NCBI RefSeq assembly: GCF_013122565.1
Contig: NZ_CP053258.1
DNA length: 64,000 nt
Reading direction: 5' to 3' (one strand)
DNA from: Escherichia coli
Lineage (GTDB): Bacteria > Pseudomonadota > Gammaproteobacteria > Enterobacterales > Enterobacteriaceae
Shown: one piece after another, positions 38,153-47,630 of the stretch
Layout of the letters: each line of letters begins with the position of its first letter
Numbering within the stretch: position 1 is the stretch's first letter
Translations under genes and position numbers: made by a program
The notes under the pieces: model-generated
Seen by the model: only the letters and a program-made list of their open reading frames with translations
Database searches by the model: none
Told to the model about the DNA's origin: nothing

Positions 38153-38893
38153 TTAGTAAATAGACACTCTGAACCCCGGATTCAGGAACGACTCGCGCGG
38201 AGTGTAATCCAGCGGTTTACCCTGCCAGTCGTGAACGTGCGCTCCGGCAGCTGCAGCCACAGCATGACCGGCGGCGGTGTCCCAAATATTCGTTGGTCCG
38301 AAGCGCGGGTACAGCTGCGCCTGTCCTTCCGCCACCAGGCAGAATTTCAGCGAAGAGCCGATGGACGTGGTCTGATGTTCGCCAAGCTGTTGCAGATACT
38401 CTTTCAGCTCCGCATCTGCATGGGAACGGCTGATAACCACCAGCGGCGGGCGCGCATCGCGGACCTGAATCTGCTTGCGCACACCGCACTCTTCTTTCCA
38501 GGCTTTGCCTTCTGCCGCGCTGTACATTACGTTCATTACCGGCGCATACACCACACCTAAAATCGGTTTGCCGTGGTCGATGAGCGCAATGTTAACGGTG
38601 AATTCGCCATTACGTTTAATAAACTCTTTAGTACCATCCAGCGGGTCTACCAGCCAGTAACGCTGCCAGTGCTGACGGACTTCCCAACCGGGAGGATCTT
38701 CTTCAGAAAGGACCGGAATATCCGGTGTCAGCGTACGTAAACCGTCCATGATAACGGTGTGTGCGGCAATATCCGCTGCCGTTACCGGAGAATTGTCCGC
38801 TTTGCTGACGACGTCCATCGGTTTCGTCCCGTCGTAGACCTGCATAATGGCATCGCCTGCATTCCGTGCAAGCTGGCATACTTGATCTAACAT
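38153..38893 (-). CDS. cysQ: 3'(2'),5'-bisphosphate nucleotidase
   Basis: 246 aa inositol-monophosphatase family ([20 protein letters not shown]...). Confidence 0.95.
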
Positions 38894-39082
38894 TTCTCCA
38901 CCTCGTCTCTGTGAGCGGTGTTAACTTATTGTTTTACTTATACCCTATCGTTAATGAATGCGCCAACTGTGATAGTGTCATCATTTTCAAAGCGTAAAAT
39001 TGTGGCATTCTTCACTGTTCTATAAGTAAGACGTTTATTCTCCCTTTTCTTTCGTATTCCCGATGATAAAAGGATGTCCCTG

Positions 39083-41026
39083 ATGATTAAGTTTAGCGCA
39101 ACGCTCCTGGCCACGCTGATTGCCGCCAGTGTGAATGCAGCGACGGTCGATCTGCGTATCATGGAAACCACTGATCTGCATAGCAACATGATGGATTTCG
39201 ATTATTACAAAGACACCGCCACGGAAAAATTCGGACTGGTACGTACGGCAAGCCTGATTAACGATGCCCGCAATGAAGTGAAAAACAGCGTACTGGTCGA
39301 TAACGGCGATTTGATTCAGGGGAGTCCGCTGGCCGATTACATGTCGGCGAAAGGATTAAAAGCAGGTGATATTCACCCGGTCTATAAGGCATTAAATACG
39401 CTGGACTATACCGTCGGCACGCTTGGCAACCATGAGTTTAACTACGGTCTGGATTACCTGAAAAATGCGCTGGCAGGAGCGAAATTTCCTTATGTAAATG
39501 CCAACGTCATTGACGCCAGAACCAAACAGCCAATGTTTACACCGTATTTAATTAAAGATACCGAAGTGGTCGATAAGGACGGAAAAAAACAGACGCTGAA
39601 GATTGGCTATATTGGCGTCGTGCCGCCGCAAATCATGGGCTGGGATAAAGCTAATTTATCCGGGAAAGTGACGGTAAATGATATTACCGAAACCGTGCGC
39701 AAATACGTGCCTGAAATGCGCGAGAAAGGTGCCGATGTTATTGTCGTTCTGGCGCATTCCGGGCTGTCTGCCGATCCGTATAAAGTGATGGCGGAAAACT
39801 CAGTTTATTACCTCAGTGAAATTCCGGGCGTTAACGCCATTATGTTTGGTCATGCTCACGCCGTTTTCCCAGGTAAAGATTTTGCTGATATCGAAGGGGC
39901 TGATATCGCGAAAGGCACGCTGAATGGTGTTCCGGCGGTAATGCCAGGCATGTGGGGCGATCATCTTGGTGTAGTCGACTTACAACTCAGTAATGACAGC
40001 GGTAAATGGCAGGTGACGCAGGCGAAAGCGGAAGCACGACCGATTTACGACATCGCTAATAAAAAATCCCTCGCGGCGGAAGACAGCAAGCTGGTAGAAA
40101 CACTCAAAGCCGATCACGATGCCACACGCCAGTTCGTCAGCAAGCCAATCGGTAAATCTGCCGACAATATGTATAGCTATCTGGCGCTGGTGCAGGACGA
40201 TCCGACCGTGCAGGTGGTGAACAACGCGCAAAAAGCGTATGTCGAGCATTACATTCAGGGCGATCCGGATCTGGCAAAACTGCCGGTGCTTTCAGCTGCC
40301 GCACCGTTTAAAGTTGGTGGTCGCAAAAATGACCCGGCAAGCTATGTGGAAGTGGAAAAAGGCCAGTTGACCTTCCGTAATGCCGCCGATCTTTATCTCT
40401 ATCCCAATACGCTGATTGTGGTGAAAGCCAACGGTAAAGAGGTGAAAGAGTGGCTGGAGTGCTCCGCCGGACAGTTTAACCAGATTGATCCTAACAGCAC
40501 GAAACCACAGTCACTCATCAACTGGGATAGTTTCCGCACCTATAACTTTGATGTGATTGATGGTGTGAATTATCAGATTGATGTTACCCAGCCTGCCCGT
40601 TATGACGGCGAGTGCCAGATGGTTAATGCCAATGCGGAAAGGATTAAGAACCTGACCTTTAATGGCAAGCCGATTGATCCGAACGCCATGTTCCTCGTTG
40701 CCACCAATAACTATCGCGCTTACGGCGGCAAATTTGCTGGTACGGGCGACAGCCATATCGCTTTTGCTTCACCGGATGAGAACCGCTCGGTGCTGGCAGC
40801 TTGGATTGCTGATGAGTCGAAACGTGCGGGGGAAATTCACCCGGCAGCAGATAACAACTGGCGTTTAGCACCGATTGCCGGCGATAAGAAACTGGATATC
40901 CGTTTCGAAACCTCTCCGTCAGATAAAGCCGCAGCGTTTATTAAAGAGAAAGGGCAATATCCGATGAATAAAGTCGCGACCGATGATATCGGGTTTGCGA
41001 TTTATCAGGTGGATTTGAGTAAGTAA
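39083..41026 (+). CDS. cpdB: 2',3'-cyclic-nucleotide 2'-phosphodiesterase/3'-nucleotidase
   Basis: 647 aa from ATG at 39083 ([33 protein letters not shown]...). Confidence 0.95.
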
Positions 41027-41039
41027 AACACTTCTTTTT

Positions 41040-41235
41040 CGGCCTATAAATCATCAACCGCATCCGGCACTTTTGGCGGATGCGCTGCTGGCGCATCTTA
41101 TCCGCCCTACAAGCCATGAACCGTTGACCATATAAGCGCAGCGCATCCGGCTCTTCCTGGCGGAGGCGATGCTGACGCATCTTATCCGCCCTACAAGCCA
41201 TGAACCATAGACCGGATAAGCGCAGCGCATCCGGC
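41040..41235. repeat. REP/BIME cluster with an ~80-bp direct duplication
   Basis: GCGCATCTTATCCGCCCTACAAGCCATGAACC occurs at about 41090 and 41170, interleaved with inverted GCGCAGCGCATCCGGC units. Confidence 0.8.
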
Positions 41236-41237
41236 AG

Positions 41238-41390
41238 TTATGCCGCACGTTCATCCCGCACCGCTAACACCTCGGGCAAATTCAACTCAATCCAGTCCGC
41301 CAGTGCAGCAACCTTTTCGCTCACCTGCTCGCCCAGCGGCGTGAGGCTGTATTCCACATGCGGCGGCGTTACTGGCGTTGTCCGGCCAAT
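41238..41390 (-). pseudogene. ytfH: 3' remnant of HxlR-family regulator gene ytfH (N-terminal two-thirds absent)
   Basis: Reverse frame gives ...PPHVEYSLTPLGEQVSEKVAALADWIELNLPEVLAVRDERAA*, an HxlR-type C-terminus; in-frame TAA directly upstream and no start codon. Confidence 0.6.
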
Positions 41391-41500
41391 GTTAATAACT
41401 AGTTAATTAAAGTGGCATCCTCCCGCATCCTCTCTGATAATGACGGGATGCCGGGAGCAATCATGTCTGCTTCCTGAACTTTCTTCTGACAGATCAATGG

Positions 41501-42502
41501 ATGCCAGTAATGATTAGCGGCGTGCTGTACGCCCTGTTAGCAGGGTTGATGTGGGGGCTTATCTTTGTCGGGCCGTTGATCGTGCCGGAATACCCGGCGA
41601 TGTTGCAGTCGATGGGGCGTTATCTGGCGTTAGGGTTAATTGCGCTACCCATTGCCTGGCTGGGACGCGTGCGTCTGCGTCAGTTGGCGCGTCGCGACTG
41701 GCTTACCGCCTTGATGCTCACCATGATGGGCAACCTTATCTATTACTTCTGCCTTGCCAGTGCCATTCAACGTACTGGCGCGCCTGTTTCCACGATGATT
41801 ATCGGCACCCTGCCGGTGGTCATTCCTGTCTTTGCCAATCTGCTTTATAGCCAGCGCGACGGCAAACTCGCATGGGGAAAACTCGCCCCGGCACTGGTTT
41901 GTATTGGCATCGGCCTGGCGTGTGTGAATGTTGCTGAGTTAAACCACGGACTCCCCGATTTTGACTGGGCACGTTATACCTCTGGCATCGTGCTGGCGTT
42001 AGTTTCCGTGGTCTGCTGGGCGTGGTATGCCCTGCGCAACGCCCGCTGGCTGCGGGAAAATCCCGACAAACATCCGATGATGTGGGCAACGGCGCAGGCG
42101 CTGGTCACGCTGCCGGTTTCTCTCATCGGCTATCTCGTCGCTTGTTACTGGCTGAATACGCAAACGCCGGATTTCACGCTTCCTTTTGGCCCGCGTCCGT
42201 TGGTTTTTATCAGCCTGATGGTCGCAATCGCTATTCTCTGCTCGTGGGTGGGCGCGCTTTGCTGGAATATCGCCAGCCAGCGTTTGCCTACGGTGATCCT
42301 CGGCCCGTTAATCGTGTTTGAGACGCTGGCGGGTTTGCTGTACACCTTTTTGCTACGCCAGCAATTGCCATCGCTGTTAACGTTTAGCGGCATTGCGCTG
42401 TTAGTGATTGGCGTGGTGATTGCGGTTCGGGCGAAGCCGGAGAAACCGTTGAGTGTCACTATTACCGACGTTAACAAACCCACTGCCACGAAAGGGTTAT
42501 AG
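41501..42502 (+). CDS. ytfF: EamA/DMT-family inner membrane transporter
   Basis: 333 aa polytopic membrane protein (start could be 41510); conserved position before ytfE. Confidence 0.8.
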   Translation: MPVMISGVLYALLAGLMWGLIFVGPLIVPEYPAMLQSMGRYLALGLIALPIAWLGRVRLRQLARRDWLTALMLTMMGNLIYYFCLASAIQRTGAPVSTMIIGTLPVVIPVFANLLYSQRDGKLAWGKLAPALVCIGIGLACVNVAELNHGLPDFDWARYTSGIVLALVSVVCWAWYALRNARWLRENPDKHPMMWATAQALVTLPVSLIGYLVACYWLNTQTPDFTLPFGPRPLVFISLMVAIAILCSWVGALCWNIASQRLPTVILGPLIVFETLAGLLYTFLLRQQLPSLLTFSGIALLVIGVVIAVRAKPEKPLSVTITDVNKPTATKGL

Positions 42503-42561
42503 CTTTACCTAAAAGATGCATTTAATATGCATCTTATATTTTTCACCATGAGGTATCCGCT

Positions 42562-43224
42562 ATGGCTTATCGCGACCAATCTTTAGGGGAACTGGCACTC
42601 GCTATTCCTCGCGCTTCGGCACTGTTTCGTCAATATGATATGGATTACTGCTGCGGCGGTAAGCAAACGCTGGCGCGCGCGGCAGCACGTAAGGAGCTGG
42701 ATGTTGAGGTCATTGAAGCCAAACTGGCAAAGCTTGCAGAACAACCGATTGAGAAAGACTGGCGTAGCGCCCCGCTGGCGGAAATCATCGACCATATCAT
42801 CGTGCGCTACCACGATCGTCACCGCGAACAACTGCCAGAGTTGATCCTGCAAGCTTCTAAAGTCGAGCGCGTTCACGCCGACAAACCGAGCGTGCCAAAA
42901 GGGCTGACAAAATACCTGACCATGCTGCATGAAGAGCTTTCCAGCCACATGATGAAAGAAGAGCAGATCCTCTTCCCGATGATCAAACAAGGCATGGGCA
43001 GCCAGGCGATGGGGCCAATCAGCGTAATGGAAAGCGAGCACGATGAAGCGGGCGAACTGCTGGAAGTGATTAAACACACCACCAATAACGTCACACCGCC
43101 GCCGGAAGCCTGCACCACCTGGAAAGCGATGTATAACGGTATTAATGAATTGATTGATGACCTGATGGAGCACATCAGCCTGGAAAACAATGTGCTGTTC
43201 CCACGCGCGCTGGCTGGTGAGTGA
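42562..43224 (+). CDS. ytfE: Iron-sulfur cluster repair di-iron protein (RIC)
   Basis: 220 aa, [33 protein letters not shown]... Confidence 0.95.
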
Positions 43225-43276
43225 TTCGTTCGATCAACGATCCTGACATGTACGGGATCGTTGATTGTTAAGAGGT

Positions 43277-44770
43277 TCAGTCTTTCAATGGACGTAATTC
43301 ATTGTTGTAACTGGTGTAACTGCCTTCAACGGTAAGTAGATTGCCGTTTTCATCAAGATGCGCCGCATTGAGTTGTCGAGTTTCATTACGCCGCTTCGCA
43401 TCACGAACCAGCCCATCGCCTACGTAATAAATATAGTGGTCATCATGAGCAAAGGTATCTGATAATTGACCATTGGCGTATTTAAACCACGTCCATTGGC
43501 CTTTAAGCTCAAATTTCTCAACCGTGTCTTTATCAATAAAATACGTATAGCGATCGTCATGTGCCAAATAATTTAATGTTGTGCCATCGGGGCTTTTATA
43601 CCACTGCCATTGCCCATTGATATCAAAAATAGTCACATCATCCCTTGCAAGGAAATAAACTTTATTCCCTACAACATTAGCACCTTCCTGTAATTCTTGT
43701 TGCGGGTCTGGTAAATGAATGACCGAAAGCGTTTTTTCGACCGCAGAAATATACTTCACCAGATAGAGCGAATCTTTATATTGCGCCACATTCTTCGTCA
43801 GCGGGCGAAAATATTCCGGATCAACATCAGGAATGGTCGCAACCCGGCAGTCATTGGCACGCCAGGAAGCATCACGCGTCATCCAGGTTACTTTATCCCG
43901 CTGTAGGTCAAATGTATTCCGGCAATCTTTACCGAACGAATAACGTTTCTCCCCGTCCTTATCGCGATAAATCAGCAGGGAACCGGCTATCCAGCGCACA
44001 ATATGAAAGGTGTCCGGATCGGCGTCGATGGCATCTCCGTTCACAAAGACCTGCGATTTTGTCCGCCAGATTGTATCCCAGGGTGCGGGATGCCCCCAAC
44101 TTTCACAACTGTTTGGCAAATAAAGAATATTCCGTTGGGCCCAGGGTTTAATATCAAGAATAGAATATCCTTGGGTACTACCCAACCAGCGTCCCTGAAA
44201 GTAAAGATTGCGACGATCTTTCAGCACATCCGCGGAATCAACTGAATTCATCCTCCCCCCCACCTGTTGCAGCGAATCCATATCGACCTGCTTTTCGCCG
44301 TGATTATCATCCGTGCGTTCGCCGTCAAAATAGAGGCTGTCTTTATCGGCAGCAAAACGCCCCCATGCGCGGAATGTTGCGGCATCGACTTTCGGTGTTC
44401 CCGGCGGGTTCTGAACTATTTTCCCTGCCCATAAAATATGGCGACCATCGGTCAACCAGTCGAAACGCCAACTGCTGTTAGTTCTGATATTAGTGCCAGC
44501 ATCTACCTGAACAAAATCATTATTGATATCATCAGGAGAATCATATTTATCATCAGTGCCGTTGGGTACGCGGCGAAGTTGCTTAAACTTCACCTGCGAT
44601 AAATGAATATCCGGAAAATAGAGTCCGTAACCATCACTATCTTCAACGATATATTTTGTGCCTTGCCCCCACGGCTGGTAGTAAAACGCAGCATAAGGCA
44701 CACCAGAGCAAGCTATTGAAGCGGTTGAAAATAAAGCCAGTGCGAGACAAACAGGTTTAATTGGCAACAT
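43277..44770 (-). CDS. Secreted repeat protein, DKNYY-like, paralog 1
   Basis: 497 aa; signal peptide; recurring D-x-x-x-L/V-Y-F/Y units (DKDSLYF, DRRNLYF, DDRYTYF, DDHYIYYV); shares a core block with the adjacent gene. Confidence 0.6.
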   Translation of the reverse strand: MLPIKPVCLALALFSTASIACSGVPYAAFYYQPWGQGTKYIVEDSDGYGLYFPDIHLSQVKFKQLRRVPNGTDDKYDSPDDINNDFVQVDAGTNIRTNSSWRFDWLTDGRHILWAGKIVQNPPGTPKVDAATFRAWGRFAADKDSLYFDGERTDDNHGEKQVDMDSLQQVGGRMNSVDSADVLKDRRNLYFQGRWLGSTQGYSILDIKPWAQRNILYLPNSCESWGHPAPWDTIWRTKSQVFVNGDAIDADPDTFHIVRWIAGSLLIYRDKDGEKRYSFGKDCRNTFDLQRDKVTWMTRDASWRANDCRVATIPDVDPEYFRPLTKNVAQYKDSLYLVKYISAVEKTLSVIHLPDPQQELQEGANVVGNKVYFLARDDVTIFDINGQWQWYKSPDGTTLNYLAHDDRYTYFIDKDTVEKFELKGQWTWFKYANGQLSDTFAHDDHYIYYVGDGLVRDAKRRNETRQLNAAHLDENGNLLTVEGSYTSYNNELRPLKD

Positions 44771-44802
44771 AGCGTCATCCTGAAGCTGTTAGCGTGAAGA
44801 GG

Positions 44803-45960
44803 TTATTTAAATAAGGGTTTAAGACCGCTCGGGGGTTGCTTCACCGATGACCAACCTCCCTTACCTAAGTTATAACGCAGCCATTTACCTTGTTGGACGT
44901 GCTCTTTCCCAACTCCAGTCGCTTGTTGAGTGTAAAGCTGCCCGTCTGTTGATATAAACGTGTTAGTTAATCCCCAACTACCACCTGCTTCAAGTGAGTC
45001 GGTGAGATCCTCTGGCTTGAGATTAATCAACTCCCCTTCGCCCAGGGCGTTGGTTGTGACTTTATAAATTTGGTTCTTATATAAACCGGTATTGCGAACA
45101 AACAGATAAAAATATTCCGGATCAACTCGCGGCAGCGTTTCATAAATACACTCACTGCCCGCTGGAGTGGCTTCATGTTTGAGCCAGGACACGTTATTCA
45201 GACCAATATTAAAAGGTGCACAGCGATAGCTGGTATCCTCCAGCTCATAGTCACGCTCACCGCTTTTATCGCGATAAACTAAGCGTTCGCCAGGCATCCA
45301 GCGGATTATCTGAAAGGTTTTACGATCGGCGGGCAGCGGCTTGCCATTAACAATCACCTGCGAATTTGTCAGCACAACAAATTGCAGGGCGGAATCATGC
45401 CGCACGATTTGAAACCCGTCAGCGCTTCCCAACCAGTGCCCCTTATGCCAAAGACTATTTTTATCACGCAGTAAATTCCAGATGTCCGTCTCTTCAAGCG
45501 TTGACATATCCACCTGCTTATCACCGCTATTATCATCGGTACGCTGACCGTCAAAATAGATACTGCGTTTATCAGCAGCGAAAGCGCCGAATGCCTGAAA
45601 ACTGGCAGCGTCGACTTTAGGTTTACCGGGGGGGTTTTTCAGGACTTTGCCAGACCAAAGGACAGAGCGTCCATCAGTGAGCCAGGCATGCTGGCAATCC
45701 CCCTCGTCATCACAATCGAACTTATCGGGATTAAAATCTGACAGTAACCGGCAATCTTGTTTATTGGTTAAATTGGCAATGCGCCAGAGGCGGGAAAAGT
45801 TAACGTCCAGCAGTTCGGAGAGGATCTCATCTTTTTGCCCCTTCTCTTCGGCAACGTAAACCGTGCCTTTCTCCTGCTGGCGGTAATAAAAATCCGCGCC
45901 CCAGGAAGGTGAAATGGAGAGCGGTAATGCGGTGATTAATAACCAACTTCGCGTAACCAT
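44803..45960 (-). CDS. Secreted repeat protein, DKNYY-like, paralog 2
   Basis: 385 aa from ATG at 45960 (MVTRSWLLITALPLSISPSWG-ADFYY...); ORF-track start at 45984 is TTG; core block shared with paralog 1. Confidence 0.6.
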   Translation of the reverse strand: MVTRSWLLITALPLSISPSWGADFYYRQQEKGTVYVAEEKGQKDEILSELLDVNFSRLWRIANLTNKQDCRLLSDFNPDKFDCDDEGDCQHAWLTDGRSVLWSGKVLKNPPGKPKVDAASFQAFGAFAADKRSIYFDGQRTDDNSGDKQVDMSTLEETDIWNLLRDKNSLWHKGHWLGSADGFQIVRHDSALQFVVLTNSQVIVNGKPLPADRKTFQIIRWMPGERLVYRDKSGERDYELEDTSYRCAPFNIGLNNVSWLKHEATPAGSECIYETLPRVDPEYFYLFVRNTGLYKNQIYKVTTNALGEGELINLKPEDLTDSLEAGGSWGLTNTFISTDGQLYTQQATGVGKEHVQQGKWLRYNLGKGGWSSVKQPPSGLKPLFK

Positions 45961-46085
45961 AGTGATCTCTGAAATGAGTGGCAAAGATCCACAGTAAGTC
46001 CGCGCCTGGGGGGATGTCGATGACGGTAAGTTTTTTTAGGAATGTATAAAGACAAAGGAGATTGCTGACAAAGTGAGCTTTGTTC

Positions 46086-46200
<115 letters not shown>

Positions 46201-46226
46201 AGACACCCGCAGGTGCCTTAGCGGCA

Positions 46227-47630
46227 TTACTTCGCCATGCGTTTTTTACCAATAAACAACCAGCCCAGCCCCAACGCGATAAACCACAGCGGGGTGACCA
46301 GCAGCGCCTGGCGGGTATCATCTTCCAGCGTCAGCAGCACGATCACAAACACAAAGAACGCCATGCATACCCAGCACATCAGCTTGCCGAGCGGCATCTT
46401 GTAGATCGACTTCTCATGCAGATGAGGACGCTGTTTGCGATACACCAGGTACGAGCAAAGGATAATCGTCCAGACGAACATAAACAGAATCGCGGAAACG
46501 GTTGTAATCATCGTGAACGCGCCAATCACGCTAGGATTCACATACAACATCACCACGCCGCCGAGCAGACAGATACACGAGAAGGTCAATCCTTTCGCGG
46601 GTACTGCGCGCTTAGAAAGTTTAGCGAACGCTTTCGGCGCAACACCTTCCTGCGCCAGACCAAACAGCATACGGCTGGTAGAGAAGACACCGCTGTTAGC
46701 GGAAGACGCCGCAGAGGTCAGCACCACAAAGTTGATCACGCTGGCAGCCGCAGGCAAACCTACCAACACAAACAGTTCAACAAACGGGCTTTTCTCCGGG
46801 ACTACCGAACTCCACGGCGTCACGGACATAATCACAATCAGCGCGAAGACGTAGAACATAATGATACGGATCGGAATGGAGTTAATCGCGCGTGGCAGTG
46901 ATTTCTCTGGATCTTTGGTTTCCGCAGCTGTTGTACCTACCAGCTCAATCCCCACGAAAGCGAAAACCGCTATCTGGAATCCGGCAAAGAAGCCACTTAA
47001 ACCTTTCGGGAACCAGCCGCCGTCATTCCACAAATGCGCGAATGACGCTTCCACACCAGTCGGTGACTGAAAGTGCATCGCCACCATGACCAGGCCGACG
47101 ACAATCAGCGACACAATGGCGACGATTTTGATCATCGCAAACCAGAACTCCATCTCACCGAACATTTTCACGGTGGCGAGGTTAAGCGTCAGCAGCAGCA
47201 CTATCACCGCCAGCGAGGCGACCCAGTCGGAGAGATCGGGGAACCAGAACTGAGCATAAGCCGTGATCGCCACCACGTCTGCCATACCGGTTACAACCCA
47301 GCAGAACCAGTAAGTCCAGCCGGTGAAATATCCTGCCCACGGCCCGAGTAAATCGGAAGCGAAGTCACTAAAAGATTTGTATTCCAGATTCGAAAGCAGC
47401 AATTCCCCCATTGCCCGCATCACGAAAAAGAGCATAAAACCAATGATCATATAAACGAAAATGATCGACGGCCCGGCAAGGCTAATCGTTTTGCCAGACC
47501 CCATAAACAACCCCGTACCAATGGCACCGCCAATGGCAATAAGCTGAATATGTCGGTTTGTGAGATTGCGCCGTAGCGACTGTTCAGCCGGAGCCTGATC
47601 ATCGGCAACGACTTTTACCTGATCTACCAT
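46227..47630 (-). CDS. cycA: D-serine/D-alanine/glycine:H+ symporter (APC family)
   Basis: 467 aa, MVDQVKVVADDQAPAEQSLRRNLTNRHIQLIAIGGAIGTGLFMGSG... Confidence 0.95.
   Translation of the reverse strand: MVDQVKVVADDQAPAEQSLRRNLTNRHIQLIAIGGAIGTGLFMGSGKTISLAGPSIIFVYMIIGFMLFFVMRAMGELLLSNLEYKSFSDFASDLLGPWAGYFTGWTYWFCWVVTGMADVVAITAYAQFWFPDLSDWVASLAVIVLLLTLNLATVKMFGEMEFWFAMIKIVAIVSLIVVGLVMVAMHFQSPTGVEASFAHLWNDGGWFPKGLSGFFAGFQIAVFAFVGIELVGTTAAETKDPEKSLPRAINSIPIRIIMFYVFALIVIMSVTPWSSVVPEKSPFVELFVLVGLPAAASVINFVVLTSAASSANSGVFSTSRMLFGLAQEGVAPKAFAKLSKRAVPAKGLTFSCICLLGGVVMLYVNPSVIGAFTMITTVSAILFMFVWTIILCSYLVYRKQRPHLHEKSIYKMPLGKLMCWVCMAFFVFVIVLLTLEDDTRQALLVTPLWFIALGLGWLFIGKKRMAK

Follow-up and report, generated by a model that had tools for sequence, protein, structure and literature searches.

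Regulators of the HxlR/DUF24 family (e.g. YodB, HypR and QorR) sense redox state and electrophiles through thiols. Based on Pfam, the intact ytfH–qorB pair comprises an HxlR/DUF24 regulator encoded divergently from an NmrA-like NAD(P)H:quinone oxidoreductase; both genes are intact in E. coli K-12. QorR of C. glutamicum controls a quinone oxidoreductase (PMC3351151), and a genomic SELEX study lists qorB as a single-gene unit and a sigma-70 promoter in the spacer between qorB and ytfH (PMC3946193). In the literature on ytfH, qorB or ytfG together with albertii, no paper describing the deletion presented here was found. We consider the locus, with high confidence, to be a natural loss-of-function deletion allele of the divergent ytfH–qorB pair, probably formed in a single event of illegitimate recombination without a mobile element. 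The allele is ordinary in the sense that it is already present in public genomes, with the stub annotated as a pseudogene.

The window, i.e. the whole 64-kb stretch of DNA that was analysed, contains the cysQ–cpdB–ytfH–qorB–ytfF–ytfE–cycA neighbourhood at 38153–47630, inverted with respect to the K-12 orientation; the features around the junction are listed in Table 1. The strain is E. coli sensu stricto, since cysQ and cpdB are 98.8% and 97.5% identical to annotated E. coli and treB–treC–nrdD are 99.1–99.2% identical at best. It is not near any of the 5426 complete RefSeq genomes, and only the Logan assembly of SRR11451224 yielded proteins identical to its CpdB and YtfF. Concerning the other neighbours, the copies of the REP unit overlap (41059–41151 and 41142–41235, as self-overlapping BLAST matches). 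One copy of the unit is found in most E. coli (including the loci L001 and L003) and two in the E. albertii locus L002, and the stretch gives weak, sub-threshold matches to the REP-derived Rfam family naRNA4. Two hypothetical minus-strand genes (497 aa and ~385–393 aa, the latter with a faint DKNYY Pfam match) lie between ytfE and cycA at 43277–45984. This two-gene arrangement is found in ~267 of the 5426 E. coli genomes, and the copy in the window is only 92–93.5% identical to those.

Table 1. Features of the region around the ytfH–qorB deletion junction (positions in the window).
Feature	Position	Strand	Description
cpdB	39083..41026	+	left neighbour; ORF; 97.3–97.5% nt identity to annotated E. 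coli cpdB
REP-type palindromic repeats	41040..41235	.	between cpdB and ytfH remnant; ~83-nt unit duplicated
ytfH 3' remnant	41238..41367	-	codons 85–126, stop and one base of codon 84; pseudogene
20-nt junction patch GTTACTGGCGTTGTCCGGCC	41368..41387	.	replaces 1185 nt of K-12
qorB 3' remnant	41388..41402	+	last four codons (N V N N) and TAG; identical to intact E. coli and K-12
AT-rich near-palindrome TTAATAACTAGTTAATTAA	41392..41410	.	SpeI and PacI; native, spans qorB stop
native qorB–ytfF spacer	41403..41509	+	kept intact, 107 nt
ytfF (EamA/DMT transporter)	41510..42502	+	intact; alternative longest-ORF start 41501

Alignment to K-12 and other E. coli, which an earlier note on this DNA had proposed, defined the endpoints of the deletion: the 1185 nt found at 4,433,179–4,434,363 of K-12 MG1655 are absent, and the 20-nt patch stands in their place. 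Compared with K-12, qorB codons 1–282, the entire divergent promoter spacer and ytfH codons 1 to ~84 are lost; nucleotide homology to intact ytfH ends at 41367 (BLAST against intact genomes). The earlier note had described a truncated ytfH on the minus strand that lacks a start codon and has an in-frame TAA upstream, and this was confirmed: the last 42 codons and the stop are retained, the TAA is at 41403–41405 and the sole start is a GTG, which gives a 39-aa ORF. Its statement that qorB is missing also holds, with AAT GTT AAT AAC TAG as the leftover. For the longest ORF of ytfF, the start at 41501, ~110 bp away, is likewise correct; the PGAP start in homologous genomes is 41510. The pair is intact in K-12 and no translocated copy is present within the 64-kb window, where searches for a second QorB, YtfH or deleted segment (tblastn and blastn) returned chance matches only. 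No IS, transposase ORF or att-like sequence was found within 41236–41510. An IS-mediated deletion was considered and rejected, as there is no IS copy at the window junction.

Looking at the ytfH remnant separately, residues 82–126 of K-12-type YtfH match 41375..41238 at 98% identity (tblastn), and the stub translation over codons 85–126 is identical to K-12 YtfH. The stub reaches 34 bits against Pfam HxlR (PF01638; cut-off 20.8) and covers only profile positions 54–89 of 91, whereas intact YtfH covers positions 2–88. Residues 1 to ~84 are gone, and with them the start codon, the promoter and the DNA-binding helix. Because the N-terminal part, promoter and proper start are absent, the stub is a pseudogene and not a functional member of the HxlR/DUF24 family. 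PGAP labels the homologous stub as a partial ‘winged helix-turn-helix transcriptional regulator, incomplete, missing N-terminus’. Over its 42 codons, the stub has accumulated 5 amino-acid changes in E. albertii and 0 in E. coli, where it equals the intact alleles.

The near-palindrome TTAATAACTAGTTAATTAA is present where the earlier note had placed it, as a single copy in the window (0 expected in shuffles), and carries one of the two SpeI and one of the four PacI sites of the 64 kb. In the intact E. coli ECNB21-M121 (L003), qorB ends ...CAT CTT TTT AAT GTT AAT AAC TAG and is followed by TTAATTAAAGTGGCATCC. A suggested check was whether the palindrome exists in strains that retain ytfH–qorB. 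K-12 MG1655 has it, and so do all ten intact Escherichia loci examined (eight further E. coli loci from diverse backgrounds and two divergent Escherichia lineages). The 19-mer is the native qorB stop codon with its downstream spacer, and not a product of the junction. The breakpoint does not fall inside it, as had been thought, but 2–24 nt upstream, at the patch; the 19-mer itself is intact wild type. Three readings of the junction had been offered, of which the natural deletion scar stands, while an engineered junction and an HxlR operator left after decay are both rejected. The operator reading fails because the ytfH–qorB promoter region is wholly deleted in the window. The 19-mer also lies at the qorB 3' end, ~860 bp from that divergent promoter region, and the homologous element in other genera precedes an AraC-family gene.

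This homologous element, GTTA(A/C)-N6-GTTAAT, is found directly after the qorB stop in Citrobacter, Enterobacter, Kosakonia, Pseudocitrobacter and others. The same genera contain a 274-aa AraC-family gene between qorB and ytfF, which Escherichia lacks. The order after the qorB stop in other genera is GTTAM-N6-GTTAAT, GT(A/G)GC, an inverted repeat flanking GATAAT, GGAG and a GTG start. Since the homologous element precedes the AraC-family gene elsewhere, the 107-nt Escherichia spacer is a relic of the upstream region of that gene. In the window, a promoter scan of the spacer gave the promoter-like hexamers GTGGCA (41412–41417) and GATAAT (41436–41441). The spacer also contains an inverted repeat at 41420–41457 (fold z-score -3.9) and a relic mini-ORF, ATG TCT GCT TCC TGA (41463–41477). 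The arm sequences of the repeat vary between genera with complementarity kept; RNAalifold across genera gave 5 pairs with double changes at only -3.9 kcal/mol, a weak and alignment-dependent result. The terminator scan found none, and the Rfam scan of 40900–41700 gave no match at the junction or spacer, the only hit being sub-threshold REP-like naRNA4. The first ~60 nt of the spacer are identical in E. coli and E. albertii amid a difference of 32% at the 4-fold sites of neighbouring genes, which suggests that the spacer is constrained; plausibly, it holds a putative promoter or operator now serving ytfF. ytfF keeps its own upstream region and, judging from the promoter-like hexamers, is probably still expressed.

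The YtfF protein of the window contains the EamA domain and has 95% amino-acid identity to K-12 YtfF. From ~42187 onwards, the 3' part of ytfF is an unusually divergent allele. For the region 42150–42600, which comprises the ytfF 3' end and the ytfF–ytfE spacer, none of 5416 complete E. coli genomes exceeds 79% nucleotide identity, and E. albertii and other Escherichia loci reach ~78%; the differences in ytfF are mostly synonymous. By its sequence, this region resembles a mosaic allele that was acquired from a lineage not yet sampled.

The patch GTTACTGGCGTTGTCCGGCC is unique within the window, and no template of ~20 nt or more was found elsewhere in the window or in the 5426 E. coli genomes. 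E. coli HCP4S3_I4 has the identical patch, the Ec-U9 group (Ec-U9-1: GTTACTGGCGTTGTGCGGTC) deviates from it at 2 of 20 positions and E. albertii (GTTACCAGCGATGCCCGGTT) at 6 of 20; the architecture GTTAC..GCG.TG.CGG.. is common to the deletion alleles. In the 41 intact ytfH genes inspected, which range from Escherichia to Aeromonas and Betaproteobacteria, the encoded sequence is invariably ...PVVPPHVEY, whereas the deletion alleles read ...VTPPHVEY at that position and are one codon shorter. Across the patch, the minus-strand reading is ..GRTTPVTPPHVEY in the window and ..NRASLVTPPHVEY in E. albertii. Local alignment of the patch to intact ytfH–qorB on both strands gave chance-level matches only, and its edit distance to ytfH sources was near that of shuffles, i.e. 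without signal. The E. albertii patch compared with the last 31 nt of qorB gave a marginal edit-distance P of 0.004 (uncorrected, 15 tests). The patch may be a scrambled ytfH end, a scrambled qorB end or filler.

The E. albertii patch ends in CGGTTAA, which equals ytfH ...ACGGTTAAG, and abuts qorB ...TT(T/G)TTAA|TGTTAAT, so that this allele reads CGGTTAA|TGTTAAT. In intact genomes TTAA/GTTAA is found at ytfH codon 76–77 and at the qorB end; the window reads CCAA, with the neighbouring 20 nt scrambled. The E. albertii version suggests a 4–5-nt TTAA/GTTAA microhomology at the junction, and such a junction followed by local scrambling would be the most economical reading. The exact breakpoints and the microhomology are uncertain because the patch has no significant alignment to either gene.

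The deleted segment is present in 5410 of the 5426 complete E. coli genomes and absent from 16. The junction is found in exactly six of the 5426 RefSeq ‘E. coli’ genomes: HCP4S3_I4 (pig faeces, UK), Ec-U9-1, Ec-U14-2 and Ec-U10 (human urine, Burkina Faso), and SCPM-O-B-9504 (NZ_CP144930.1, L002) and SCPM-O-B-7615 (NZ_CP144926.1), which are from human faeces and raw milk, 9504 being the faecal isolate, from Russia. The E. albertii type strain NBRC 107761 (= DSM 17582) lacks qorB and carries the junction, as do two metagenome contigs. Over 5.5 kb, SCPM-O-B-9504 shares 99% identity with NBRC 107761; with E. coli it shares only 88–91%. The match statistics of SCPM-O-B-7615 equal those of 9504, with which the type-strain comparison was made, and its junction is of the E. 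albertii type. By sequence, both are E. albertii despite the RefSeq label. The allele is thus found in 5/5 E. albertii-like sequences sampled, a sample of five sequences, vs four of ~5424 E. coli plus the window; the contig scan for other Escherichia species covered the best 80 of 451 loci. A search of the junction-spanning ORF against a collection of 5.8 billion proteins gave three matches and was uninformative. The natural-scar reading is supported by the recurrence of this junction type in wild isolates, two metagenome contigs and the type strain of E. albertii.

SpeI and PacI sites are rare in the window and lie side by side near the breakpoint, which is what could be expected if the junction were a cloning or recombineering scar that brought both sites in. 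However, K-12 MG1655 and all other intact loci of Escherichia that were examined contain the identical 19-mer with the spacer downstream of it, no FRT, loxP, pKD P1/P2 or I-SceI sequence was found (best matches with 4–14 mismatches) and no lambda-Red scar is present at the junction. Also, the junction type recurs in wild isolates of several countries and hosts and in E. albertii. We reject engineering as extremely improbable, because the sites are native and FRT, loxP and lambda-Red scars are absent. A collapsed locus produced by assembly or sequencing seems about equally far-fetched: the REP repeats directly to the left (41040–41235) could cause mis-joins, but the junction lies outside them, and the junction with its patch type recurs in two metagenome contigs as well as in six complete genome assemblies. 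An identical copy is present in a Logan contig of SRR11451224, possibly not independent of the window.

Concerning the age and origin of the natural deletion, the patch architecture, VTPP and the lost codon are common to all deletion alleles and absent from the 41 intact ytfH genes, which points to a single origin. In the three distinct E. coli carriers, the flanks are entirely of the E. coli type and belong to different haplotypes (97.4–98.1% mutually identical), as would fit recurrent deletions at a hotspot that broke independently in E. albertii and several lineages of E. coli. Short TTAA/GTTAA repeats at both ends of the intact locus and the loss of the pair by other routes (e.g. IS1 in 254D-1; 16/5426 genomes without the segment) also favour recurrence. 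Yet a simple microhomology deletion would not recreate the unalignable patch architecture that all alleles have in common, and the 5426 genomes hold no template for it (sensitivity ~20 nt); recurrence is in our view quite unlikely. There is a similarly small chance of a recent transfer of the allele from E. albertii into the E. coli carriers through homologous recombination. The junction is shared with E. albertii, the foreign-looking mosaic at the ytfF 3' end indicates that the neighbourhood does take up divergent DNA, and at the equivalent of window position 41364, beside the patch, HCP4S3_I4 carries a T as in E. albertii. Apart from this position, no E. albertii-specific SNPs are found in any E. 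coli carrier over the 130 nt on the left and ~330 nt on the right side of the junction; the E. albertii-type patch is in no E. coli genome, and between the E. coli patch and that of E. albertii, which is invariant, the difference is as large as neutral interspecies divergence. Numerically, the patch differences equal the 4-fold-site divergence of the flanking genes: 6/20 between species vs 0.32, and 2/20 within E. coli vs 0.10–0.11.

Since the flanks are pure E. coli and the patch is neutrally diverged, a single origin needs either great age with homogenisation of the flanks, or an unsampled donor. Taken together, the observations fit an old allele: its E. coli flanks would have been repeatedly overwritten via recombination with intact alleles, and the unalignable patch would have been shielded from exchange. 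With only 20 sites, the patch is a weak indicator of age. That the allele is ancient, i.e. that one event roughly as old as the separation of E. coli from E. albertii, or an introgression of that age, made it general in E. albertii and left it in ~0.1% of E. coli, is a tentative and on the whole unlikely reading. Recent introgression from an unsampled lineage has a low probability, the same low probability that we give to a recurrent hotspot.

If the allele is as ancient as the patch suggests, the ~20-nt patch would tick as a neutral clock, and the long persistence would imply balancing or fluctuating selection on the quinone/electrophile-response module. The locus would then illustrate, on a small scale, a presence/absence polymorphism that is long-lived and has had its flanks erased by recombination. 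By analogy with related pairs, what was lost appears to be a self-contained module, a putative thiol/electrophile-sensing regulator together with an NAD(P)H:quinone oxidoreductase. The deletion takes out the putative sensor, the promoter and the enzyme together, and a clean loss is what would be expected of a dispensable module. The pair is dispensable in nature: every sampled E. albertii lacks it, as do sporadic E. coli. The junction k-mer is a possible simple marker of the allele. Rare restriction sites beside a deletion are, in this case, no evidence of engineering. The apparent age and the cross-species distribution of the allele are a mild curiosity, and otherwise there is little beyond housekeeping.

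Compared with known systems, intact ytfH–qorB resembles the C. glutamicum QorR–quinone oxidoreductase pair in having an HxlR-family winged-helix regulator divergent from an NAD(P)H-dependent reductase (PMC3351151). The B. subtilis YodB–AzoR1 and HypR–HypO pairs have the same architecture; thiol-reactive electrophiles are what the QorR and YodB–AzoR1 modules respond to. This likeness to DUF24/HxlR modules concerns the lost genes, the module being deleted in the window, and the control of qorB by YtfH is putative. With recombineering or cloning scars (FRT, loxP, restriction-site linkers) the window has in common rare restriction sites beside a deletion breakpoint, and it differs in that the sites are wild-type and the scar motifs absent. 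In E. coli 254D-1 (NZ_CM180503.1, L094), the cpdB 3' end, ytfH and the qorB 5' half were lost in an independent, natural, IS1-mediated event; that allele has IS1 at its junction and other endpoints, whereas the window allele is without a mobile element. The deletion allele of E. albertii and of E. coli HCP4S3_I4, Ec-U9-1, Ec-U14-2 and Ec-U10 has the same gene order as the window (cpdB, REP, ytfH stub, last codons of qorB, spacer, ytfF), the same right breakpoint at AATGTTAATAACTAG and the same type of 20-nt patch. Two features of the window, the duplication of the REP unit and the divergent 3' end of ytfF, are not seen in the remaining E. coli carriers.
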